Source of the DNA: Spirochaetota bacterium
GTDB lineage: Bacteria; Spirochaetota; UBA12135; COTS27
Length of the DNA: 64,000 nt
Direction: 5' to 3'
Assembly: GCA_965249715.1 (NCBI GenBank)
Contig: CBDFMP010000047.1
Coordinates: 51,922 to 115,921 of the forward strand
Shown here: in pieces, positions 48,355-64,000 of the stretch
Layout: every line of letters begins with the position of its first letter
How positions within the stretch are numbered: the stretch's first letter is position 1
Notes under the pieces: model-generated
What the model was told of the DNA's origin: nothing
What the model saw: only the letters and a program-made list of their open reading frames with translations
The model's database searches: none
Translations under genes and position numbers: made by a program

Positions 48355-49998
48355 TTGGGGGCGGGGGTGCCAATGGATGTTCTGACGCGTATGGACGCCA
48401 CCATCATCCAATTGCTTACCCCGCGTGCACCGGCGGCGGTGCATATTATCCGTCTTTCCGGGCAGGAAAGTCTTTCATTTCTACGCGCGCACACGCGTTT
48501 GCAGTCCAAGCTCAGTGCGCGGCGTATGTATTATACGCCGTTTTTTGCAGCGCCGCAGACAGCTGATGAAGTAGCTGGGGCTGTCCAAGCGCTCGATCAT
48601 ATTCTTTGTGTGTATTTTAACGCGCCTTATTCGTTCACGGGCGAAGCAGTGGTGGAATTGCATTTGCATGGCTCGCTTTTCATTGTAGATGAAGTGTTGC
48701 GTGCGGGATTGCGTGCGGGATTGCGGTTGGCAGAACGCGGTGAATTCAGCTATCGCGCATTTCTCAACGGCAAACTCACAAGCGAACAAGCTGAAGCTTT
48801 GGATGCACTGATCCATGCACGCAGTGTTTACACACATCGCAATGCCATTAACCTCCTCCAGCAGCAGAGCTCTTTTGCATTTGCTGACTTGCAGCATAAA
48901 TTATTGGCGATGCTGGCAACACTGGAGAGCGCGATTGAATTTCCCGAAGAAGACATTCCCGAGTTAGAGCTTGATAAAACAACACTTTACAGCCGTTATG
49001 AAAAACAATTGACCGAGCTGCAGCTGAGTTTTCAGCAGCTGCTTGCCAATTACCAACGCGGGCAAAAGTTGGAAGCGGGGCTCCGCGTTGTGATCCTGGG
49101 CGCGCCGAACGTAGGAAAATCCACCCTGCTCAATGTTCTATTGAATACCGAACGCGCTTTGGTCTCTGAACATGCAGGCACCACGCGTGATTACATTGAG
49201 GCGAACTTGGAGCTTGGCGGTACGCGTTTTATCCTCACAGATACCGCAGGACTGCGCGCAGCAGACGATGCAACAGAACGTGCAGGCATCGCCAAGACTG
49301 CTGAGGTGACCGCACACGCCGATGTTATCATTCTGCTGCTGGGTTTGACGGAAGGTTCAGGCGAGCAGCAATACGCTGAGCTGCGTGCGCAATGTGCCAC
49401 ATTGCTTGAGCTTGAGGAATTGAAGCTGGCGGAACGGGAAGCGATTGCCGCGCGCGCATCCAATGCTGCCGCTCCCCATGCAAAAGCCAATACACATCGC
49501 AATCATACAGGTGTGTTAGGCCTCAGTCCGCAGTTTTTGCTGTACTGGAACAAGTCCGATTTATGTCCAGCTGCTGTCTGGGATGAGTTATGTGTAAAAT
49601 TGCAAGCCGATGTTTCCTTTCAACGCCTCTTCCGCTTGGTACATTTAGTGGGGGGGATTGAGGCGCTGGACGTTAACCAGCGATTTTCATTGACACAGGA
49701 CGCAGCGGCAGCCATTGACAATGTGCAGGCAGCATTGCAACGCTGTGCAGTATCGATAAGCGGTGCGCGTGCTGATGGGCATTCCCTTGCCTTGCTCAAT
49801 GTCAGACAGGCGGCGATCACTGAGCGATTGCTCGCTGGTTTTGCGCGTGCATTGGAACTGGTGCGGGTGGGGGAGAGTGAGGAGATCTTAGCAGAGGAGT
49901 TTCGCACACTTGGCGACTACTTTAGCGAATTGGGGTTCTCTACCCACAATGAAAAACTTTACGATACGCTTTTTAAGCAGTTTTGTATTGGTAAGTGA
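48355..49998 (+). CDS. mnmE: tRNA modification GTPase MnmE (TrmE)
   Basis: 547 aa. G-domain GAPNVGKSTLLN, DTAGLR, NKSD. C-terminal FCIGK motif. About 35 extra Ala-rich residues lie between G3 and G4. Confidence 0.9.
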   Translation: MGAGVPMDVLTRMDATIIQLLTPRAPAAVHIIRLSGQESLSFLRAHTRLQSKLSARRMYYTPFFAAPQTADEVAGAVQALDHILCVYFNAPYSFTGEAVVELHLHGSLFIVDEVLRAGLRAGLRLAERGEFSYRAFLNGKLTSEQAEALDALIHARSVYTHRNAINLLQQQSSFAFADLQHKLLAMLATLESAIEFPEEDIPELELDKTTLYSRYEKQLTELQLSFQQLLANYQRGQKLEAGLRVVILGAPNVGKSTLLNVLLNTERALVSEHAGTTRDYIEANLELGGTRFILTDTAGLRAADDATERAGIAKTAEVTAHADVIILLLGLTEGSGEQQYAELRAQCATLLELEELKLAEREAIAARASNAAAPHAKANTHRNHTGVLGLSPQFLLYWNKSDLCPAAVWDELCVKLQADVSFQRLFRLVHLVGGIEALDVNQRFSLTQDAAAAIDNVQAALQRCAVSISGARADGHSLALLNVRQAAITERLLAGFARALELVRVGESEEILAEEFRTLGDYFSELGFSTHNEKLYDTLFKQFCIGK

Positions 49999-50101: not shown

Positions 50102-51838
50102 ATGGCAATTGGTAATGTTGATTTTAACGGTAATCATGATTTGGCAATGGTATTTCGTAATGGGGCTATTTATGATGTCCCATTTTTCCAACGCAGCTAT
50201 TCATGGGAAGCGGAGCAGTGGGAGGAACTATGGGAAGAGCTTGTCGCTTTATTAAACAAAGAAACGGATTATCATTACATGGGCTGTTTGGTACTGCAGC
50301 CCAGTCAGCGAGAGAAAAAAAAAGCATTTCGTATTATTGACGGTCAACAGCGTCTCGCAAGCTTTAGTATTATTATTCTTGCAGTACTCAGCCGCTTAAA
50401 TGCAATTATAAACGGACAAACCAATGATGCCGCAGCTGGAAATAAGGATCGTTTTGAAACGTTTGAAAAACAATATATTGGTTCAAAAGATCCCGTTAGC
50501 TTAGCATATTATACTAAGTTAAAACTTAATAAGGAAGATAATAATTTTTATTGCGATAGTCTGGTTCCGTTGAAAAAACCGGCATCAAGGTTTCCTAAGT
50601 CTTATTCACAACGTTTATTAGATAAAGCACTTAAATGGTTTGAACAAAAGCTGGAGGCACTGTACCAAAGTGACGGGGAAGCGTTGGCGAAATTTGTTGA
50701 AACCATTGCAGAAAAGACGTTTTTTACGGTTATTCAAGTTGATGATGAATCAGAGGCATTTGCTGTTTTCGAAACACTCAATGCACGCGGTGTTCAGCTG
50801 GCGCCAACAGATTTGCTAAAAAACTATTTGTTTTCAATAGTTAACAAGGAACCCGATACAACAGCTGCTAAAAAATATCTTAAAATAATGGAGGAAGCTT
50901 GGGAAGGTATGCTCAGTACACTTGGAGCTGATAAAGTCATGGACTTTATCAGAGCGTATTGGAATAGTAAACATGAATTGCCAAAGGGACGTAACTTATT
51001 TAAAACTATACGTCCTAAAGTTAAAATGCCCAAAGAGGCGTTTGATTTAGTCGCTGATTTAAAATTTAACGCTGGTATTTATGCTGTGTTAAGAAATCCT
51101 TATGATCGTAAGTGGGAGGATTTGGGTCAGAAAGATAAATTTGAAAAATATCTTAACGAATTAAAACTTTTTAGCAATATAAAACGGCCATTTCCGTTAT
51201 TATTAGCTGTTTATCGGAAGTATGCAGATACAGATGTCAATAAGCTTTTAACCTTTTTAAGATATGTTAGTATCATTACGTTTCGTTATAATGTCATTTG
51301 TGGTCTTGAGACGCGAGAACAGGAAGCTGTTTACAATAAAGCAGCACTAGCAGTTAATGAAAATAACTTAGACGATGCAAAAAGATATTTGCGAACATTA
51401 TATGGTAAAGTAGAAGATTCCACTTTTAAAGAGGCATTTTCAACGAAAGATATTAAGCGTGAAAAAATGACTAAATATATTCTTGCTGAATTAGAAAAAG
51501 ATGAGAGCGAGGGGCAAGGGAACTTTGAAGTTCCTGCTAGTGTTACGGTTGAGCATATATTTCCTCAGGGAGACACGCATTGGGATGACTGGCCAGCTAG
51601 TCCTGATTTAAAAGAGCATATCTTTCGTTTGGGTAATCAGACCTTGCTAGATGCCGGCGATAATCGAAACTTGGATAATAGTTCTTATGATAATAAAAAA
51701 GCTGTGTACCGCAACTCTCAATACAAGCTCACTTCTTCAATCCCCGATGAATTTCCTGAATGGAACGTTGAAAACATTAATGCACGTCAAAAAAATATGG
51801 CTAAACGTGCCGCTCAGCTCTGGCGCATCGACTTTTAA
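50102..51838 (+). CDS. GmrSD-like DUF262 (ParB-like, DGQQR) plus DUF1524 (His-Me finger) nuclease, a type IV restriction-like defence protein
   Basis: 578 aa. N-terminal FFQRSYSWE and IIDGQQRLAS motifs. C-terminal EHIFPQ and GNQTLLDAGDNRNLDNSSYDNKK (H...N...N) motifs. Own promoter-like tataat at 50065-50070 and an SD gagggga. Confidence 0.8.
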   Translation: MAIGNVDFNGNHDLAMVFRNGAIYDVPFFQRSYSWEAEQWEELWEELVALLNKETDYHYMGCLVLQPSQREKKKAFRIIDGQQRLASFSIIILAVLSRLNAIINGQTNDAAAGNKDRFETFEKQYIGSKDPVSLAYYTKLKLNKEDNNFYCDSLVPLKKPASRFPKSYSQRLLDKALKWFEQKLEALYQSDGEALAKFVETIAEKTFFTVIQVDDESEAFAVFETLNARGVQLAPTDLLKNYLFSIVNKEPDTTAAKKYLKIMEEAWEGMLSTLGADKVMDFIRAYWNSKHELPKGRNLFKTIRPKVKMPKEAFDLVADLKFNAGIYAVLRNPYDRKWEDLGQKDKFEKYLNELKLFSNIKRPFPLLLAVYRKYADTDVNKLLTFLRYVSIITFRYNVICGLETREQEAVYNKAALAVNENNLDDAKRYLRTLYGKVEDSTFKEAFSTKDIKREKMTKYILAELEKDESEGQGNFEVPASVTVEHIFPQGDTHWDDWPASPDLKEHIFRLGNQTLLDAGDNRNLDNSSYDNKKAVYRNSQYKLTSSIPDEFPEWNVENINARQKNMAKRAAQLWRIDF

Positions 51839-51860: not shown

Positions 51861-53813
51861 ATGCGATACAACTTCGACGTCGTTGTTATTGGGGCGGGAC
51901 ATGCAGGGCTGGAAGCCGCGCTGGCTGCTGCTAAATTAGGACAGTCAACCGCGCTGATCACCATCAATACCGATCACATTGTTTATATTTCCTGCAATCC
52001 GTCGATTGGCGGCTTGGGGAAAAGCCATATTGTCAAGGAGCTGCACGCCCTAGGGGGTGCAATGCCCGCACTCGCCGATCGCTCCGCTCTGCAATATAAA
52101 CTACTCAATAAATCGAAAGGCATGGCTGTTTGGTCATTGCGCGCGCAGATTGATAAATATCAATATTCCCGCTGTGCAAGTGATGCTGCTCTTTCCTGTC
52201 CCAAGCTTCAAGTCATCCAGGATCGCATTGACGAGCTGATTATTGATAAAAGCGGGGGAGGCAAGACAACCGCGCGTGTCCTGGGAGCAGTGGGGGAGCG
52301 CGGCACGGAATACCGTGCTCAGGCTGTCATCCTTGCTACCGGCACTTTTCTTGGCGGGAAGCTTTACATTGGCGACCACACCATACAGGGGGGGCGCCTT
52401 GGCGAGCTCAGCTCCACCAAGCTGGCGGCAGCACTCAAACAGTTTAACTTTAAGCTGGAACGATTGAAGACTGGGACTCCCGCGCGGGTACATAAGGATA
52501 GCATTGACACAACAGAGCTGGCCGTGGAGTGGGGCGATAACGATGAACCGTTGGCATTCACCGATGATTTCTCACTCAATCAAAACCCGCGCCTGCCGTG
52601 TTACATCACCTACACCAATGAAGCCACGCACGCTGTCATTCGCAACAATAAGGCGTGTTCGCCGATTTATTCAGGAAGCATTACCGGTACAGCGCCGCGT
52701 TATTGTCCATCCATTGAGGATAAGGTCTTTCGTTTTGCAGGAAAAACCAGCCACCAACTTTATTTGGAACCTGAAAGCGCGCACACAAAAGAAGTTTACA
52801 TTAATGGTCTCTCATCCAGTATGCCTGAGGACGTCCAATACGCTATGCTCCGTACCATTAAAGGTTTGGAGCAAGTGCGTGTGATCAAACCTGCCTATGC
52901 CGTAGAATACGATTACATTGAACCGACGCATATGCGGCATACATTGGAAAGCAAGCTGATTGCGGGGCTTTATTTTGCGGGACAAGTTAACGGTACATCG
53001 GGTTATGAAGAAGCTGCCGGTCAAGGGTTTATGGCCGGGGTCAACGCTGCCCGTAAAATTGCCGGTGCTGAGCCCTTCACGCTCAGTCGCACTGAAAGCT
53101 ACATTGGTGTCATGATAGACGATTTGGTCCTTAAAGGTGTGCGTGAACCTTATCGCATGTTCACCTCGCGTGCCGAACATCGCCTTTCGCTGCGTTTGGA
53201 TAATGCCGATCTTCGCCTCTTGCATTATGGTGTTCACTTAGGACTGGTGAATGCCGAGCGTGAAGCTGCGTTTAAGGAGCGCTTAAAAACATTGAAAACG
53301 CTTAAACAGCAACTTGCCGTGACAACACTGCCTGCTGATGAGCTTGCCGCCTGTTATGGCGATACGGCGTTGCCCGAGCATAAACTTTCCTATTTGCTTA
53401 CACGCGGAGATACTCCTTTTAGTAAATTACTGAGGCTCAGCGCCCCCCTGCTGCAACCCAACTTCAGCACCGCCTCCCCCGCCAGTAAAGCCCAACTCCT
53501 TCGCAATCTCAGTACCGCCGCTTGTGATATTAAATATCAAGGCTACATTTCCAAACAAGCCAAAGAACAAGCACGCCTGCACAAACACCTCAACCATAAA
53601 CTTCCGCATGGCTTTGATTATGCTGCCATCAGTAGTCTTAAATTAGAAGCGCGTGAAAAGTTACAGTGCATTCAGCCGTGTACACTGCTGGAAGCCTCGC
53701 GCATTCCCGGTGTTAAATCCAGTGATCTGGAAATTCTCCTCTGGACCCTCACCAAAGCTCGTCGCAATAAACCCGCTGCCGCCGCAACGTCCATCGCAAA
53801 ATCCAATAGCTAA
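51861..53813 (+). CDS. mnmG: tRNA uridine 5-carboxymethylaminomethyl modification enzyme MnmG (GidA)
   Basis: 650 aa. N-terminal FAD-binding [23 protein letters not shown] and GidA-typical blocks throughout. Confidence 0.95.
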
Positions 53814-54091: not shown

Positions 54092-57000
54092 ATGAAAATT
54101 ACTGATTTTATAAGCTTAAAAAGTGCGTTACTTTTACCTCTTGCATTTACTGCGTGCAGTGTTGCCGATGATGCCAGCATACGCACGCTCACATTTGAAG
54201 AAATGTTAGAACCTGCAATCACTCTCACCGATGCTAACGGGGAAGAGTTTTTCGGCGCTTCTGTCAATATTGAGTTTAATGACGATACGACTGGCGAGTC
54301 TACGGACGGCACTATTTTCGTTAACGGTTTTACGAATGTTTGTTCCAATCCGCCCTGCACGGACGCTGAGCTGCAGGAGCCCATCGGCCGCCTTACCATT
54401 ACTGGAATGTCCGATACTTTTACCCTCGCAGAGGACGCAGCAAGTAATGTCATCGACATACCTGATCAGGAAGGCGCTGCCAGCATCTCAGGTAACTTAG
54501 GCAACATTGTCATCACACGCACAAGTGACAAGGCGCTCCGCACCTATGCTGTCATTGTTCAGTACAGTGGGACGCTTGTCACTGAAATTGTCGACAATGC
54601 CGGAGGCTTTGTGAATGTCATTTCCCCAGCTATGGCACCTATGGCTAGCGCTACTTTGGGCTACCAAGCGACAACAACTGCTGTATGGGACGAAGAGGTA
54701 TTAGTCGTCACTGATATGGTGAACCTACCCGGTGATACCGCAATGGGAACGGTTTCTGTTACTGCCAGCGAACTTCCTGCTGGCTACTATGTCATGCCTT
54801 ACACCTATACCGACCCTGCCGGCACAAAGGCTGTCGCACTTATGGGTACACTTACCATTGCTGAAGGCGATGAAAATACACTAAGCGTAGCTTATGAGAA
54901 CCAAGCTTCTTACGACAACCTGCGCATTGAGCTAACTGAAGCGCCTGATCTTGCAATCACTCCCCAAGACCTGATCATCTCAGTAACGAATACGCTCAAC
55001 AACGATATCGTCCTTGACGCTGGGCACTTCGTTATTAATTACAACCATTTTACCGTTACCATCACTGACGCTACTATTTTTCACAATTTAAACGGAGCTG
55101 AGTTAAGTTTAAGCAGTGGTTCGCTTAGCCTTAGCGGAACAGAAAATAGCGCTTTTGATATTGATGCCGCAAATATAACTACCGTGTTTACGGATCCCAT
55201 CGGTACTGAAGCTATCACTACCAACCTCAATACTTTCAGCGTAACAAAAGATGCTATTTCTATTGACTACTCGCTTTATTTGACGTTTGCAAGTACTTAT
55301 AACTTCGAGCTGGATAGTGAGGTCATTGCTGACATGGAAACAGGTGTATCCGCTCCTTTTGTTATTGCAGCTTGCGATAACCCAACCAGCTCTATCTTCA
55401 CTATCGCCACTGACGGCACGACCAACTATTTTGCTAATGTGAGCGGACGTGTTAATTATTATTATAATAGCGCGATAGATGCTAATAACACCAATACCAT
55501 TGTCCTTACGGCTGATGATGGCAGTAGTTTGGATTTTACAGGAGCCATTGCTGTACAGAAGTGCGACAGTTTTGCAGGCGGCGATGGCAGCGCTGGCAAT
55601 CCCTGGCAAATTGATAACGATATGCAATTAGACCTTATGAGCCGCCTCATTAATAATGATGATGCCGCTACAGCTACATATAGTGACTACGGCGATGATG
55701 CCTACATCCTCACTGCGAACATCGATATGAGCATTCCCGAAGCGCCATGGGCAGAAGGTAGTTTGCACCCCAATGCAAATACAAACGGCTTCATACCCAT
55801 TGGCAAGAGTGTTAATCCTATCGGACTCTCAGTCTCACATCAAAGCAACAGCTTCAAGGGACAGCTGAACTGTGAGGCTAACAACACCCGCTATGCTATT
55901 GCGAATTTATACATTAACAATACAAATGACACTGCAGCTGAGAATACTGAGGGAGTTTTTATCGGTCTTTTCAGCGTTCTCACTAATGGCGCTGTGATTA
56001 CAAACTGTACATTGGAAAATGCTTCTATAACTGGATACCAAATTGTAGGAGGCATAGCAGGATATGCGTATAGTTCAAATAATGAGAATATTAGTATTGG
56101 AAGTAATATCGTTGCCAATAGTAGTATCACGGCTAATAGTAGCCGCGTAGGCAGTATTGTGGGAGTTATTTATAGTGTACAAAACAGCAGCATTGTTATC
56201 AGCAGCAATGCCGTTACAAATGGCAATGTTTCAACTGGCAATAGCTACGCAGGCGGCATCATAGGAGCTTCCACTAGTTCAGGCACCAGTACTAATACTA
56301 TCAGTGGCAATACCGTTACTGATGGAAGTATCACGGCTGACAATGACAACGCAGGCGGCATCACAGGGTATGTGGCTAGTTCCGGTGGTAATACTATTGT
56401 CAGCATGAATACTGTTACTGGCGGTAGCGTCACGGTAAACGATGATAACGCAGGCGGCATTGTGGGATATATTCATAGTTCACAGGACGCAAACAGTACC
56501 ATAAGCGGTAATACTGTTGCAAACGGCAATATCACCGCTAGCAACAATTTCGTAGGCGGTATTGCAGGATATATGTATAGTGGAGAGAGGGGCGGCGGCA
56601 CCCTCAGTAATAATGTTGTTACAAATGGCACCATCAGCGTAAGCTTCTATGATGCAGGCGGCATTGCAGGAGTGATGTATAGCACATCCTTTGGCAGCAA
56701 TGCCCTCAATGACAACGTCGTTACAAATAGCAGCATCACAGCTGATAATACAGCAGGCGGCATTGTGGGAGATGTGTATAGTTTAGAAGATGGCAGCAAT
56801 ATCATCAGCACGAATAACATTAGTGGCGGTAGCATCACGGCTAACATAAGCAACGCAGGCGGCATCGTGGGATTTATGTATAGTGAAAATGCCAGCAAGA
56901 GCAATGTCATCAATGCCGCGTTTGCCGCCACAACCATTACTGCCAGCAATGGAAACGCCGGCGGAGTAGTCGGGTACATTCTTCAGGGAGGCATCACTAA

Positions 57001-57445
57001 CAGCTTTTTTATGGGAACCATTAGTGCTGATAGCGGTACAGTTGGCGGTGTCGTGGGTTTTGTGACCGATACCACGTCCACTATCACCAACTCTTATGCG
57101 GCGGCAATTGTAACGGGTATTCCTGATACTAGCTATGGATTGGTGCCCACCAGCGTTACGGTCAACCATAGCTACTACAATAGCACATTGCACACAGGCG
57201 CAGCCGACAGTGCTGAGGGAACAGTCGCGCAAAGCCATGACGTGCTGCGATACCCCAGGGGCAGTAGAGGCATTTATGCGAACTGGGATGAAGCCAGTTG
57301 GGATTTCGGCACTGACGATCAGTACCCCATGCTGAGAGGATTGCCACTTACGGCTTCCGAGCAGTGCGGAGTTGCCGATGCTGCGCTTACCAGTGTGACG
57401 TTTAACTGTGGAACGGGTACGGGCGATACTGGTTACGATGATTAA
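54092..57445 (+). CDS. giant surface lipoprotein with an N-terminal Cys-x-x-Pro-Pro-Cys module and ~13 tandem GLUG-like 29-aa repeats
   Basis: 1117 aa. Lipobox LAFTAC-S. N-terminal module CSNPPCTDAE...IPDQEGA is paralogous to modules in 58617..63817. Repeats have consensus N-x-V-T-N-G-x-I-T-A-x-N-x-N-A-G-G-I-V-G-Y-x-Y-S. Ends ...NCGTGTGDTGYDD. Confidence 0.7.
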   Translation: MKITDFISLKSALLLPLAFTACSVADDASIRTLTFEEMLEPAITLTDANGEEFFGASVNIEFNDDTTGESTDGTIFVNGFTNVCSNPPCTDAELQEPIGRLTITGMSDTFTLAEDAASNVIDIPDQEGAASISGNLGNIVITRTSDKALRTYAVIVQYSGTLVTEIVDNAGGFVNVISPAMAPMASATLGYQATTTAVWDEEVLVVTDMVNLPGDTAMGTVSVTASELPAGYYVMPYTYTDPAGTKAVALMGTLTIAEGDENTLSVAYENQASYDNLRIELTEAPDLAITPQDLIISVTNTLNNDIVLDAGHFVINYNHFTVTITDATIFHNLNGAELSLSSGSLSLSGTENSAFDIDAANITTVFTDPIGTEAITTNLNTFSVTKDAISIDYSLYLTFASTYNFELDSEVIADMETGVSAPFVIAACDNPTSSIFTIATDGTTNYFANVSGRVNYYYNSAIDANNTNTIVLTADDGSSLDFTGAIAVQKCDSFAGGDGSAGNPWQIDNDMQLDLMSRLINNDDAATATYSDYGDDAYILTANIDMSIPEAPWAEGSLHPNANTNGFIPIGKSVNPIGLSVSHQSNSFKGQLNCEANNTRYAIANLYINNTNDTAAENTEGVFIGLFSVLTNGAVITNCTLENASITGYQIVGGIAGYAYSSNNENISIGSNIVANSSITANSSRVGSIVGVIYSVQNSSIVISSNAVTNGNVSTGNSYAGGIIGASTSSGTSTNTISGNTVTDGSITADNDNAGGITGYVASSGGNTIVSMNTVTGGSVTVNDDNAGGIVGYIHSSQDANSTISGNTVANGNITASNNFVGGIAGYMYSGERGGGTLSNNVVTNGTISVSFYDAGGIAGVMYSTSFGSNALNDNVVTNSSITADNTAGGIVGDVYSLEDGSNIISTNNISGGSITANISNAGGIVGFMYSENASKSNVINAAFAATTITASNGNAGGVVGYILQGGITNSFFMGTISADSGTVGGVVGFVTDTTSTITNSYAAAIVTGIPDTSYGLVPTSVTVNHSYYNSTLHTGAADSAEGTVAQSHDVLRYPRGSRGIYANWDEASWDFGTDDQYPMLRGLPLTASEQCGVADAALTSVTFNCGTGTGDTGYDD

Positions 57446-58432
57446 TACCCAACGTACATAACCCTTGCTTTTGCGGGGACGCGGGGCATAGTGGGGAAGG
57501 CTTGCCATGCTCCGCCTGTTAATGTTTTTAATTGCCGTTGCCCATAAAATCAGCGGCGGCGGCTTTTTCTTCCAGCAGCTCACGGCGGGTGGCGTTCAAC
57601 TTCTTCTGAGCAAGGGTGTCATGGGCACTGGCAGCGGATGAAGAGCCGCGCGCCTTGAATGAGCGTTGCGCCGCCGTTGCTGAACATTGTCGATAAACTC
57701 GCCGCGCAGCCAGCTTTCGTTGTCAATGACAGTCGTGACGGGTTTCGTGTCAATGGTGCCGGTGCTATTGGCAAACTATTGGCAAAATCGAAAAATTGGG
57801 TGCTGGAATGCCAGTAGCTGGGATTTCGGCGCTAATGACCAGTACCCCATGCTGAGAGGACTGCTGCTTACAGCTTCAGAGCAATGCCAAGCCGCGGATG
57901 CTGCGCTTACCAGTGTGACACTTAACTGTGGAACAGGTACGGGCAATACTGGCTACGATGAGTAAGGCACACTAAAACTCACCGCGCCGCTTGCGGGAAC
58001 GCGGGGCATAGTGGGGAAGGCTTGCCATGCTCCGCCTGTTAATGTTTTTAATTGCCGTTGCCCATAAAATCAGCGGCGGCGGCTTTTTCTTCCAGCAGCT
58101 CACGGCGGGTGGCGTTCAACTTCTTCTGAGCAAGGGTGTCATGGGCACTGGCAGCGGATGAAGAGCCGCGCGCCTTGAATGAGCGTTGCGCCGCCGTTGC
58201 TGAACATTGTCGATAAACTCGCCGCGCAGCCAGCTTTCGTTGTCAATGACAGTCGTGACGGGTTTCGTGTCAATGGTGCCAGTGCTATTGGCAAACTATT
58301 GGCAAAATCGAAAAATTGGGTGCTGGAATGCCAGTAGCTGGGATTTCGGCACTGACGATCAGTACCCCATGCTGAGAGGATTGCCACTTACGGCTTCCGA
58401 GCAGTGCGGAATTTCCAATAGCTAAGCTTGTA
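57446..58432. repeat. two ~520-bp tandem units, each a ~290-bp segment of unknown origin plus a copy of the last ~55 codons of the lipoprotein gene. The array ends in a 26-bp copy of the mnmG 3' end
   Basis: C-terminal copies at 57800-57965 and 58320-58405; genuine at 57280-57445. tccaatagctaagcttgtacaagttc occurs at 53801-53826 and at 58407-58432. ORF-track 57687..57965 and 58207..58425 are the copied fragments. Confidence 0.75.
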
Positions 58433-58616
58433 CAAGTTCGCATAAATTTAGCGGTATTGTACGGTTGATTTTTTTAGTTTTATTTGTTAAATAAAACAAC
58501 CCAAATTGCTAATCTGTGTTATTATTTAACCTAAGATACTTTAACTGTATATAAGACACTAACACTTCCGCATGAAAAATAAAAGTGGAATAGTTTAGCT
58601 TTTCAAATTAGGAGCC

Positions 58617-61600
58617 TTGATTATGAAATTCACTCAAACAACTTCAACAAAACACTTCACCCCGCCCAAAAAAATACCTAAATTTGTTTTTGCTTTCCTC
58701 ATAAGCATCTTATTCTCCGTTTTCACGGCATGTACCACCGCCGATGACAGCACTTCCACTCGCTTAACGTTTGAACGGGCATTGGATGACGCTATCGCAC
58801 TTAACAATGTTGACGGCAGTAGCTCACTTCAGGGTGCTATTGTTCGCTTTGAGCATACAACCAATGATAACGGTGAAACCACCGGCGATGGTACTATTAT
58901 TATTGAAAATATCACCAATATCTGCTCCAGCCCGCCTTGTGGGGTTGCTGAAACTGCCGATATCGGTACGCTTGTGCTGTCTTATAATGACAATTCTTTT
59001 ACCATCGCCAATAATCCAGCTTTCACCATTACTGACACAGCAGCTTCCCTGTCTATCCCAGACCAAGACGGCGCTGTTGCTGCAAGTGTTACATTAGCTA
59101 CCATTACCATCACCAGGAACAGCGATGCAATGGACTTCAACTACGACATTATCGCCGATTACAATGGAACTCCTGTCGCTAATATTATTAATGCCATTGT
59201 CTCCACTCCTGCTGATATTACAAAAATTATCAATGCCACCTTTGATGCTGTTGAACTGGAAGCAACCTTAGATGCTGCTTCCGCTACTATCGCCCTCAGC
59301 GGCATCAACCGCGTCAATGGCAGCGGTGTTATCAGCATTAATGACAACGACGACGGCACGCTCCCAGCTGGCTTCGCGGTCACTAAACCTGACGGCACAG
59401 CTTACACTTTCGCCGATCCCGATGATGCCGACATTACCAATTATGACGCCACCCCGCTAGCTGAAGGCATGCTGAGCATTGCTGAACGTGTGGATAATGG
59501 CGACGGCACCTTCGGCGATGTTGTGGGCGGCAATGAAGCCAGGTTCACGGTTACATTCGCCTTAGCCGAACTCAGCGGCTTCGGTAAAACTTTCCTCAGC
59601 ATCGCTGACCCAGACGGTAATGACCTCAACGGTTATGACATCACCGTGACAACAAACGACGCCACTACTGGTACCATTGCCATTAGCGGTCTTATAAATG
59701 CCTGTGCCACGCCGCCCTGTATGAACGCAGGAGGCGCCATCGGTACACTCATCTTTACTAAAGAGAATGCCGCTTTCATCATTACTGCCGATGGAGACTT
59801 CATCGACGCCGGTACAACCGTCACCCGTAGTGTCCCCGACCAGGACGGTGCCGGCGCTATAGCAGCTGTTGCCTTGGGCAACATTACTATCTCTAACATT
59901 GATGACGCTGATGAAATCAGCTATGCCGTTACTGCCACTTACACAGGCACACCCGTTAATGACATCATTGCCAACGCAGCAGGCGGCATCGCTGACCTCA
60001 TCACCGCTACGTTTACTTACGGTACTTTCACCAGTCAAACACTCACCCCAAGTTTGAACGCCGAGTTTGATACCATCACCCTTGCAGGTACCAATACCTA
60101 CTCGGGCACAGGCGCTATCAATGGCATTGACACTGTCCTCCCAGCTGGTTTCACCGTCTCCACCCCAGACGACACGGACTTTACTTTCAGCGACCCCGAT
60201 GATGGTGCCATCACTGAAACCAATGCCACCTTAACTACATCGCTCACCATTGCTGAAACGGGTACGGATAACAGCAATGATTACAGCATTATGCTGGACT
60301 TAGCCGCACTCACCTTGTTTGATGAAACGTTCCTCAGTCTCAATGACGCTGACGGCAACACCGTCACCGCTGATAATGCCATCATCGTAGCCACAACTGA
60401 AGACCCTGACCCAGCTGTCAGCTCAGGCGCCATCACGCTTAGTCAAATCACAAACTTGTGTACCGCCCCGCCCTGCAGTGATGCTGAATCGGATGCTGTT
60501 GTCGGTACGCTCATTCTTACTAAGGATAACGCTTTTAGCTGTTGCGTTCAGCGCCACTTTCAGCCGATGACGACACCACCGCCACACTCAGTCTCCCCGA
60601 TCAAATTGGTGCGACAAATACAAACGTTGATTTTGCTGCTGCAACCAATATCACCATCACGCGCGGCGATAATGCTGTCATCACTTATACCCTCAGTGCC
60701 GCTTACAGCAGCACTGCTGTCGCTGACATCATTGCCAATGCCGTAGGCGGCGTGCCTGCCCTTATTAAGGCTACATTCAGTGGACGTGACCTCATTGCCG
60801 AGCTCAGCGCTGACGGCAGCACCATCGCACTCAGCGGCACCAATGCCGCAACACCCGTCGACGCCGACCCCCCAGCAGGTGCCATTAACGCCAGCAGCAT
60901 GCTCCCAGCTGGCTTCTTCGTCACTAAAATTGACGGCACAGCTTATACAGCTTATACCTTTGCTGACCCTGACAATGAAAATACCAACGATTATCTCGCC
61001 ACTACGCTGACTGAAGGCATGCTGAGCATTGCTGAACGCGCGGATAACGGCGACGGCACCTTCAGCGATGCTGTGGGCGGCAATGAAGCCACTTTCACGG
61101 TTACACTTGCCTTAGCTGAACTCTTAGAACTTAACCAGGTAAATTTTAGCATCAATGCCCCAAGCGGCACTCCGCTTGGCACGGATGTTTATTCCATTGA
61201 CGTGACAATAAACGATGACGCCACCGCCACCGGCACCATCGCTATTAGCGGTCTGACTAATGCCTGTGCCACGCCGCCCTGCATGAACGCAGGTGATGCC
61301 ATTGGCACGCTCGTTCTCACTAAAGATGCCGCCGCTTTCACCATTACTGCCGATGGAGACTTCACCAATGACACCGACACCGCCACCGCCACCCTCAGTA
61401 TCCTAGACCAGGACGGCGCCGGCGCTGCAGCAGCTGTTACCTTGGGGAACATTACCATCTCTAACCAAGGCGCTGATGAAATCACCTATACCGTTACTGC
61501 CACTTACACAGGCACACCCGTTAATGACATCATTGCCAACGCAGCAGGCGGCATCGCTGACTTCATCACCGCTACGTTTACTTACGGTACTTTCCCCAGT

Positions 61601-63817
61601 CAAACACTCACCCCAAGTTTGAACGCCGAGCTTGACACCATCACCCTTGCAGGTACCAATACCTACTCGGGCACAGGTGCTATCAATGGCATTGACACTG
61701 TCCTCCCAGCTGGTTTCACCATCACCCCAGTAGGCAGTACGGATTTCACCGACCCCGATGGTGATGACATCACTGAAACCAATGCCACCTTAACTACATC
61801 GCTCACCATTGCTGAAACGGGTACGGATAACAGCAATGATTACAGCATTATGCTGGACTTAGCCGCACTCACCTTGTTTGATGAAACGTTCCTCAGTCTC
61901 AATGACGCTGACGGCAACACCGTCACCGCTGATAATGCCATCATCGTAGCCACAACTGAAGACCCTGACCCAGCTGTCAGCTCAGGCGCCATCACGCTTA
62001 GTCAAATCACAAACTTGTGTACCGCCCCGCCCTGCAGTGATGCTGAATCGGATGCTGTTGTCGGTACGCTCATTCTTACTAAGGATAACGCTTTTAGCGT
62101 TGCGTTCAGCGCCACTTTCAGCGATGACGACACCACCGCCACACTCAGTCTCCCCGATCAAATTGGTGCGACAAATACAAACGTTGATTTTGATGCTGCA
62201 ACCAATATCACCATCACCCGCGGCGATAATGCTGTCATCACTTATACCCTCAGTGCTACTTACAGCAGCACTGCCGTTAATGACATCATCGCCAATGCAG
62301 GCGGCGTGCCTGCCCTTATTGAGGCTACATTCAGTGGACGTGACCTCAGCGCCGAGCTCAGCGCTGACGACAGCACCATCGCACTCAGCGGCACCAATGC
62401 CGCAACAGCCATCGACGCTGACCCCCCAGCAGGTGCCATTAACGCCAGTAGTCTTCTGCCAGCTGGCTTCGCGGTCACTAAAACTGACGGCACAGCTTAT
62501 ACCTTTGCTGACCCTGACGGTGAAAACACCAATGATTATGACGCCACCCCGCTAGCTGAAGGCATGCTGAGCATTGCTGAACGCGTGGATAATGGCGACG
62601 GCACCTTCGGCGATGTTGTAGGCAATAATGAAACCAATTTCTCCGTTATGCTGACATTAGAAGAATACAGCGACTTCGGTATGCTTTTTTTCACCATCAA
62701 TGATCCAGCCGGTAATGAACTCACAGGCGCTTCACTCAGCGTAACAACAGCCGCCACCACCGGCACCATCGCCATTAGCGGTCTTACTAATGTCTGTGCC
62801 GCCCCGCCCTGCGCGAACGCAGAAGCGAATATCGGCACGCTCGCTCTTAGTAATGATGCTGTAGTGTTCACCGTTACTGACTTCGGAGATTTTGCCAATA
62901 ACGACGGGACCGCTACCCTTATCATCCCAGACCAGGTCAGCGCTACCCAGCTGCTGAGTGTTGCCTTGGGGAACATTACCGTCGCCAATATTGGGGCTGA
63001 CGCCATTACCTATACCATCACCGCCGCTTACAGCAGTACTCCCGTTACTGAGCTTATCGCTAATGTTGGCGGCATATCAGCACTGCTGCCGCCGGCAGCA
63101 GCAACCGTCACTTTGGGCAGCAGTGGAGCAGGTGATAATGCCATACTCAGCTGGGAGAATGATGTTTTAACCATCGTAAACATCCCCAACCTCAGCGGCA
63201 ACACTGAAGCGGGAATGGTGACACTGCCTACTCCCAGCTTATTGCCCGCAGGATTTTACATTAGCTCGACAAGTTACCCCTTTACGGACCCAGTCGGTAC
63301 GGATGACGCCAACATAAATGATGATGCTGCCTTTACCATTGCTGAAGGTGATCCAGGCGATGGTACTGAACAAAACCCGCCCACCATAACCGATAACAAT
63401 AGCAATGTTTATGGTCTGAACATTAATTTTGGCGCAACTCCTCCTGTTATTCTTAGTGCTACAGACCTGAGTATCATCGTTACGGATACGCGCGGCATTG
63501 ATCACAGCATCGCTTCAGCTCAACTGCGCGTTGTCCAGTATGATGCGAATCCCAGCGTGACCATCACTGCCGTTGCTGATATTCGTAACTTTAACGAAGC
63601 AATAACTGCACTTGGGTTACGTGATGGAACAGTTATGCTTGCTGCTGCAACGGGCAGCAGTATTTCCATTGATATAACAGACATCGAAACTACCTTTGTT
63701 GATGCCGCTGGCACGGAATCCATCACGCTTGACCTTGGCAGTTTCAGCGCAACAGAAAATTCTAGTTCCACTACTTATACGTTTATGCTTTACGCTACTG
63801 ACAGCTTATGGCATTGA
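58617..63817 (+). CDS. giant modular surface lipoprotein (paralog of 54092..57445), reading frame interrupted near 60535-60575
   Basis: ORF-track pieces 58617..60746 and 60542..63817 are one gene. The segment 60000-60540 is nearly identical to 61530-62100. The break has two 1-nt insertions relative to the internal paralogous copy at about 62095. Lipobox FTAC-T. About 8 modules start at ISGLTNxCAxPPC...LPDQDGA. Confidence 0.6.
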
Positions 63818-64000
63818 AGTGAACATTGAGCTAGGTGGTAGTGCTGACTATTCGCTGACATGGAAACAAGCAGTCCCATCAGCATCCGTTCATACTATTA
63901 CTCGCTTGCACATAAACCAGCCCGCCGTTGCTTTCACTATTACTGCTGACGGCACGACCAACAATCTCAATGACGTGACCGTAAATATTAACTATTATTA
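63797..64000 (+). pseudogene. continuation or fragment of a paralogous lipoprotein module in a shifted frame
   Basis: After the tga at 63815-63817, GSADYSLTWKQAVPSASVHTITRLHINQPAVAFTITADGTTNNLNDVTVNINYY continues in another frame. It is homologous to the 55300-55460 region (ELDSEVIADMETGVSAPFVIAACDNPTSSIFTIATDGTTNYFANVSGRVNYYYN). Confidence 0.4.

Follow-up and report, generated by a model that had tools for sequence, protein, structure and literature searches.

The Lig proteins of Leptospira (LigA, LigB and LigC) carry an N-terminal lipoprotein signal ahead of a long tandem array of beta-sandwich domains. They are outer-membrane proteins with 12-13 tandem Big domains, their repeats bind Ca2+, and ligC is a pseudogene in some Leptospira serovars (PMC3012076). 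Here we describe a gene of comparable design in a 64,000-nucleotide stretch of DNA (hereafter the window) from a spirochaete, Spirochaetota bacterium (assembly GCA_965249715.1, contig CBDFMP010000047.1, positions 51,922 to 115,921), where the forward strand from position 58617 to the window end appears to encode the start (5.4 kb) of a giant, very acidic, lipid-anchored surface protein. Functionally and architecturally, the Lig family is the closest analogy to this gene among known systems. Both come from the spirochaete phylum and consist of long tandem beta-sandwich arrays; in the Lig proteins, too, the part after the repeats is variable at the C-terminus and paralogues share a highly conserved N-terminal portion, and the ligC pseudogene parallels the broken gene copy described below. 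However, the Lig repeat is a single domain of 90 amino acids (aa), whereas the repeat here is a two-domain module of 255 aa with an invariant C-x-x-P-P-C motif; the giant gene has no Big_2 or other Pfam match; the C-terminal heads of its relatives are GLUG-like or metzincin-like; and its host is an uncultured organism, not Leptospira. Because the Big profiles found no match, the giant protein is not a member of the Lig family.

The gene is covered by two overlapping open reading frames (ORFs) on the forward strand, ORF1 (58617-60746, 709 codons) and ORF2 (60542-63817, 1091 codons), which lie in different frames, and from the ORF2 stop (63815-17) a third frame is open up to position 64000. A sequence-only reading of this DNA had divided the gene into about eight modules of ~170 aa. 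A hidden Markov model (HMM) built from 12 modules and run on the six-frame translation instead identified six full modules of 250-268 aa (about 255), each with two domains and a single C-x-x-P-P-C pair, and each with a profile score (179-291 bits) that we count as non-chance. Exactly six such motifs are present, at residues 101, 361, 613, 881, 1132 and 1391 of the translation from which two inserted bases (see below) had been removed; because of these two insertions the match to module 3 is split across two frames, at 60563. The motifs on which the shorter repeat had been based (ISGLTNxCxxPPC, IGTL, PDQ.GA, GNITI and ATYTGTPVNDII) do recur through the gene, but all of them fall within the first half of the module, and the second half has conserved motifs of its own (LSGTN, LPAGF/Y, F.DPDG and L.IAE…N). 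In the module alignment, the second domain of module 6 is of a terminal type, like that of the single module in a paralogue encoded upstream.

The structure of one module (module 4) was predicted with AlphaFold. Using an alignment of 40 modules, which superseded a run with 12 sequences (predicted local distance difference test score, pLDDT, of 69), the model reached a pLDDT of 90.8 and a predicted template modelling score (pTM) of 0.80. It is all-beta and shows two tandem beta-sandwich domains (residues ~1-118 and 119-215), followed by 25-30 residues that are uncertain and probably part of the next module. Residues N11, C13, C18, D60, A64, Y93 and N201 are invariant across the 40 modules; two cysteines and no more, both of them invariant, occur in 53 of 54 non-redundant modules. 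The model places Cys13 and Cys18 in the loop (residues 11-23) that joins strands 1 and 2. This fits the earlier suggestion that the paired cysteines close a small loop, and the pair probably forms a disulfide staple there. A Foldseek search against PDB returned as best matches tandem cadherin and protocadherin extracellular cadherin (EC) domains (E about 1e-3, template modelling score, TM, 0.2-0.3), with two consecutive Greek-key beta-sandwiches aligned with the module model over ~250 columns. The EC domains resemble the giant protein also in that the latter is very acidic and has conserved D/E/N residues in loops at strand ends; by contrast, they are only 9-13% identical to the module at this low TM, the module has no Cadherin match in Pfam, and cadherins lack the Cys pair. 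The resemblance is generic: as modelled, the module would be a beta-sandwich pair of ordinary cadherin/Ig-like topology, without a specific known relative. By analogy, Ca2+-stiffened junctions, as in cadherins and the Lig Big domains, are plausible.

That the module is not recognised as a named domain, as the sequence-only reading had remarked, holds at the sequence level. Pfam matched no family to ORF1 or ORF2 (E<=0.1) or to two relatives, P0002 and P0003 (E<=10); NCBIfam returned none for five proteins; and no curated profile identified Big_1, Big_2, Big_3 or another named repeat domain. An exhaustive HMMER search with the module profile against 1.84 billion cluster representatives detected 42 proteins at E<=1e-3, 39 of them at E<=1e-10, the weakest of the 42 (P0042) being an unrelated repeat protein. 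Word-indexed searching proved nearly blind to this low-complexity family, for which the exhaustive HMMER search worked: one such search of 5.8 billion proteins recovered only the gene itself and two relatives, and a second gave a single match. Searches of genome contigs with a whole-protein alignment, and with P0003 alone (its patterns being too specific), found no relatives.

The start assigned by the ORF-calling tool, TTG 58617, lies in frame two codons 5' of an ATG at 58623, which is most likely the true start and is preceded by a ribosome-binding site (RBS). The N-terminus of the product, MKFTQTTSTKHFTPPKKIPKFVFAFLISILFSVFTAC, has by pattern inspection the charged n-region, hydrophobic core, lipobox and invariant Cys of lipoprotein signals, and an acidic Ser/Thr-rich tether (TTADDSTS) follows directly after Cys37. 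This tether is kept among family members with the consensus C-[STA][STA]-A-[DE][DE]-S. A similar opening of signal, Cys and acidic tether is found in about 20 of the 41 family ORFs; the pattern itself counted 22 of 41, among which P0003 was matched at an upstream Cys, and it missed P0013. The mature protein contains 224 D+E against 30 K+R residues (isoelectric point about 4). Together with the module array and the intact paralogue upstream, the signal bears out the proposal of a giant modular lipoprotein gene of more than 5 kb that is the second of a paralogous pair. A promoter and terminator scan of the spacer upstream of the gene scored no better than shuffled sequence.

The window ends within the spacer that follows module 6, and so a GLUG-like head is expected beyond position 64000, as in the paralogue and the relatives. 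In the relatives the common order is a lipoprotein signal with tether, one to four or more modules, the spacer, a head and a conserved end. The spacer has the consensus …ITAAAGIxNFNE…FTDPxGTE…ADMET…C…SVFTIAADGTTN…, the head begins with FAGGxGTxxxPWQIDNDxRLDLMSRL and continues with many xAGGIxGy (GLUG-like) repeats, and the conserved C-terminal end reads …YxxWDxxxW(D/N)FG…QYPxLKGLPLTxxEQC. Lipobox, modules, spacer, GLUG-like repeats and conserved C-terminus occur in this order in P0003, P0015 (the upstream paralogue), P0023 and P0026. In P0006, four modules lead to another kind of C-terminus, which contains HEMGHNLNLHH and matches metzincins weakly. Because the paralogue and the full-length relatives end in a GLUG-like head, or in one case a metzincin-like one, the modules most likely serve as a stalk, anchored by lipid, on which a C-terminal head is displayed; this function is deduced from the order of the parts. 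The modular repeat array of the sequence-only reading stands, but it would not be the whole of the giant lipoprotein, only the stalk of a larger architecture with spacer and head. In the proposed arrangement, processing of the signal, which is of signal peptidase II type, would leave the protein lipid-anchored N-terminally at Cys37; twelve beta-sandwich domains, two from each of the six modules of about 255 aa, would make up a rod; and the rod would then lead to the spacer and the C-terminal head, usually GLUG-like and in one lineage metzincin-like. The modules would keep the head, whether it binds or catalyses, at a distance from the membrane, a principle shared with the Lig lipoproteins of Leptospira.

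Weak alignments connect the xAGGIxGy repeats of the paralogue and relatives to the GLUG N-terminal domain of streptococcal IgA1 protease and to the Bacteroides structure 3N6Z. Against PDB sequences, a three-sequence profile of the head gave weak matches to 3n6z (E 0.002) and 6xjb (E 0.03), and the Peptidase_M26_N and GLUG profiles matched the paralogue and relatives only below threshold. Apart from these sub-threshold scores, the family differs in having no M26 catalytic domain, and in the position of the head: in the IgA1 protease the domain is N-terminal in an LPXTG protease, whereas here it is C-terminal in the lipoprotein relatives and, for the giant gene, outside the window. A metagenome scan with the whole-protein alignment found 36 loci, all of which matched the head part only (23-31% identity). 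The head alone is thus widespread in metagenomes while the modules are not, which makes the modules the rare part. In P0005 (2511 aa), two successive units of spacer and GLUG-like head follow four modules, so the whole head cassette can be duplicated too.

Within the array, a higher-order unit of two modules (about 1.55 kb) is apparent, modules 2-3 corresponding to modules 4-5. The sequence-only reading had reported a near-identical duplication of 540 bp; the duplication is real but longer, 1.1 kb at about 96% identity, with a perfect core of 331 nucleotides (nt; 60209-60539 = 61768-62098) that is the longest perfect run between the copies. Indels between the copies of this super-repeat measure 3, 6, 9 or 12 nt, except at 60540 and 60564/5. 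Codons of the two copies show 39 synonymous against 82 amino acid-changing differences, with no clear selection signal. The array would have grown by tandem duplication of the two-module unit and would then have been partly homogenised by recent recombination.

The exceptional indels are two 1-nt insertions that had been noticed between 60535 and 60575 in the 5' copy, and both were located relative to the 3' copy. The first, a T, sits exactly at the end of the 331-nt identity tract; identity between the copies is still 98% for more than 100 nt beyond the frame break. Together the two insertions shift the frame by +2, so that ORF1 runs into a stop. A third break, previously placed near 63815 with homology continuing in another frame, was traced to an extra T in the TTT run at 63789-91, just before the ORF2 stop. 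Across it, TTYTFML on one side and TLLTAYGIEVN on the other align with TTYTLSLLLVPAYGIELN of P0002, and the homology goes on in the frame of the start codon. When the three inserted bases are removed, 1791 stop-free codons extend to position 64000, colinear with P0002, the closest relative (57% identical), which is itself truncated at its N-terminus and shares a 53.8-kb contig with P0023. Over the 1074 codons of its frame, ORF2 meets no stop, whereas the two alternative frames contain 34 and 117, a difference that speaks against chance. Further downstream, the conserved nucleotide block GCTGACATGGAAACA falls out of frame, as if flanked by two small indels that compensate each other. At the sequence level the gene therefore has the hallmark of a pseudogene, three uncompensated 1-nt insertions relative to its internal copy and to P0002.

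As the three insertions destroy the reading frame, we favour the reading that this copy of the stalk lipoprotein gene is a recently inactivated pseudogene, and give it slightly better than an even chance; at best, the broken copy would yield a truncated lipoprotein of 2.2 modules. Another account, which we regard as possible but distinctly less probable, is that the gene is intact in the organism and simply encodes a very long repetitive lipoprotein, of roughly 2,500 aa or more, the insertions being consensus or polishing errors in a repetitive gene. That the indels are real is deduced from their setting. Several observations weigh against inactivation, most of them in favour of an intact gene. 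The first two insertions fall at the exact end of a 331-nt tract identical in both copies and 24 nt beyond it, where errors of assembler consensus or polishing would cluster; the remaining indels between the copies are all in frame; and the frames between the breaks are fully open, the absence of stops from the 1074 ORF2 codons implying that inactivation was very recent, or is not real. At least 12 of the 41 family ORFs from other assemblies also have out-of-frame tails, which could equally mean systematic assembly trouble, and the many broken family ORFs in other, probably metagenomic assemblies include copies on a contig of 5x coverage. For the stalk reading itself, the structural matches are generic (TM 0.2-0.3, E about 1e-3) and the head domain of the giant gene lies beyond the window. 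On the other side, the neighbouring genes appear intact and without breaks, including those for RNA polymerase subunits of 1213 and 1385 aa; the T at 60540 does not lengthen a homopolymer; and the 3' cluster of breaks (63789-63868) is not explained by confusion between repeats, as it lies in unique sequence that matches the paralogue at only about 75%. Genuine relic 3' ends of paralogues adjoin the gene at the same locus, and another contig carries tandem paralogues of which some are broken; we count both observations for real breaks.

A quite different role for the broken copy is conceivable, on the model of vls and tprK, the recombination-based variation systems of spirochaetes: together with the relic fragments it could serve as a set of silent donor cassettes, from which gene conversion into the expressed paralogue would vary stalk length or surface epitopes. 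The perfect 331-nt tract within repeats that are otherwise 88-98% identical would fit such conversion, as would the mosaic identity (60 to 98%) among four tandem paralogues of another contig, the relic 3' ends flanking the gene, and the excess of amino acid-changing over synonymous differences between the copies (82 versus 39 codons). Yet ordinary concerted evolution also predicts mosaicism, no dedicated expression site was recognised, and the broken gene, in contrast to promoterless cassettes, retains its RBS, start codon and signal peptide; we consider the donor role improbable. The same low standing applies to its broader form, in which the C-x-x-P-P-C module would define an undescribed extracellular stalk family, and the tandem paralogues, broken copies and relic ends would make up a gene-conversion system varying a surface fibril in uncultured spirochaetes, and possibly Bacteroidota, with the broken copy as donor. 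Least likely by far is that expression is switched by slipped-strand phase variation or rescued at the breaks by programmed ribosomal frameshifting. The three uncompensated shifts do sum to +3 and thereby bring the first and last segments into one frame, but ribosomes would have to make two separate +1 skips, at sites 24 nt from each other, to decode the gene correctly, the starting frame meets a stop at 60744, and no slippery heptamer is evident; we rejected both mechanisms, as there is no simple-sequence repeat at AGC[T]GTT, CAG[C]CGA or GC[T]TTA, only the TTT at 63789. A recently inactivated pseudogene thus remains the reading that we prefer.

Coordinates of the giant lipoprotein gene and associated features, as positions in the window
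Feature	Position	Strand	Evidence or remarks
Upstream intact paralogue, 1117 aa (P0015)	54092-57445	+	One module, 54305-55003 (module HMM)
Two relic 3' ends of further paralogues	57803-57965 and 58323-58425	+	Between the two lipoprotein genes
RBS (AGGAG) and start codon (ATG)	58610-14 and 58623-25	+	Sequence; spacing 8 nt
Putative lipoprotein signal peptide	58623-58733	+	Lys-rich n-region, hydrophobic core FVFAFLISILFSVF, lipobox-like FTAC with Cys37 (TGT 58731-33)
Module 1 (C-S-S-P-P-C)	58887-59663	+	HMM, 290.7 bits
Module 2 (C-A-T-P-P-C), opens super-repeat copy A	59667-60407	+	HMM, 274.5 bits
Duplication copy A	59880-60980	+	Pairs with 61445-62535, 96% identity
Module 3 (C-T-A-P-P-C)	60423-61213	+	HMM, 33.5 + 179.5 bits, frames 2 and 1
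First 1-nt insertion, T (AGC[T]GTTGCG)	60540	+	Relative to copy B 62098/62099
Second 1-nt insertion, one C of CC (CAG[C]CGATG)	60564/60565	+	Relative to copy B 62121/62122
Stop codon ending ORF1	60744-60746	+	After 68 out-of-frame codons (…SCCVQRHFQPMTTPPPH…)
Module 4 (C-A-T-P-P-C), opens super-repeat copy B	61229-61966	+	HMM, 265.1 bits; module used for AlphaFold
Duplication copy B	61445-62535	+	Pairs with 59880-60980, 96% identity
Module 5 (C-T-A-P-P-C)	61982-62758	+	HMM, 284.6 bits
Module 6 (C-A-A-P-P-C)	62759-63496	+	HMM, 243.4 bits; module alignment
Post-module spacer	63497-64000	+	Homologous to 55004-55464 of the paralogue and to P0002 residues ~560-724
Third frame break, extra T in TTT run (GC[T]TTA)	63789-63791	+	Colinearity with P0002; ORF2 stop then at 63815-17
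Conserved nucleotide block GCTGACATGGAAACA	63854-63868	+	ADMET in the paralogue and several relatives; here out of frame, LTWKQ

The intact paralogue upstream has a start (…LAFTAC-SVADDAS) like that of the giant gene, and its module is followed by the spacer, a FAGGDGSAGNPWQIDND… stretch, xAGGIxGy (GLUG-like) repeats and the conserved C-terminus. Of the two relics between the lipoprotein genes, the first encodes …WNASSWDFGANDQYPMLRGLLLTASEQCQAADAALTSVTLNCGTGTGNTGYDE followed by a stop codon and the second is truncated; each is preceded by a 357-nt insert (57446-57802 = 57966-58322, 99% identical). By their sequence, the relics look like the remains of deleted array members. Intact-looking genes in the neighbourhood include rpoB/C, ABC transporters, yidC, jag, mnmE, a GmrSD nuclease gene and mnmG. 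The window's RpoC shares 82% identity with its best non-self match and 70% with the next, and is roughly equidistant from all RNA polymerases in PDB; the 82% match and several named, more distant matches are labelled Spirochaetota, and by this marker the host is an uncultured spirochaete lineage.

Two further observations concern the composition of the window. The gene for a GmrSD-type (type IV) restriction endonuclease (50102-51838), between mnmE (48355-49998) and mnmG (51861-53813), lies in the 2 kb of lowest GC content (0.379 versus 0.47 overall) and is, given this low GC, probably a horizontally acquired defence gene. GC skew is negative (-0.09 to -0.22) across 58001-64000 and positive in almost all of the remaining window; over the giant gene this agrees with a Thr/Ala codon usage rich in ACC and GCC in the repeats, and not with a replication feature.

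Broken members are also seen elsewhere in the family. Many family ORFs end in Arg/His/Cys/Trp-rich out-of-frame tails or start mid-module; such broken or partial ORFs are P0012, P0009, P0007, P0016-P0020, P0028, P0035, P0037, P0040 and P0041, and P0012 and P0009, which look orthologous, have their breaks at different positions. Real frameshifts may be unusually frequent in the family, or else its members are systematically mis-assembled. One unrelated contig from ENA (ERZ26222911, ctg1012048_5x_l; L001 4734-25145, L038 10001-12763) carries five family members in a row: four tandem paralogues of ~5.2 kb, each with a metzincin-like C-terminus after four modules, and then P0008. Two of the four paralogues are frame-broken. 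The four paralogues are 60-98% identical in mosaic fashion. A CHU_C (type IX secretion) protein of 1546 aa is encoded nearby; as this hints that the contig belongs to Bacteroidota, the family may extend to that phylum.

Judged by profile searches and by the model of one module, the giant gene represents a new sequence family and module design inside a familiar class of bacterial surface proteins. General concepts are unchanged, as lipid-anchored beta-sandwich rods are already well known, for example from the Lig proteins, and no open question is decided here. What is added to the bacterial surface-stalk domains is a confidently modelled repeat module that is very rare and absent from Pfam and NCBIfam, on a stalk that is found combined with at least two kinds of head, GLUG-like and metzincin-like. 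A profile of the module would make about forty 'hypothetical' giant ORFs and fragments recognisable as pieces of lipoproteins, and would also flag the family as prone to frame breaks.

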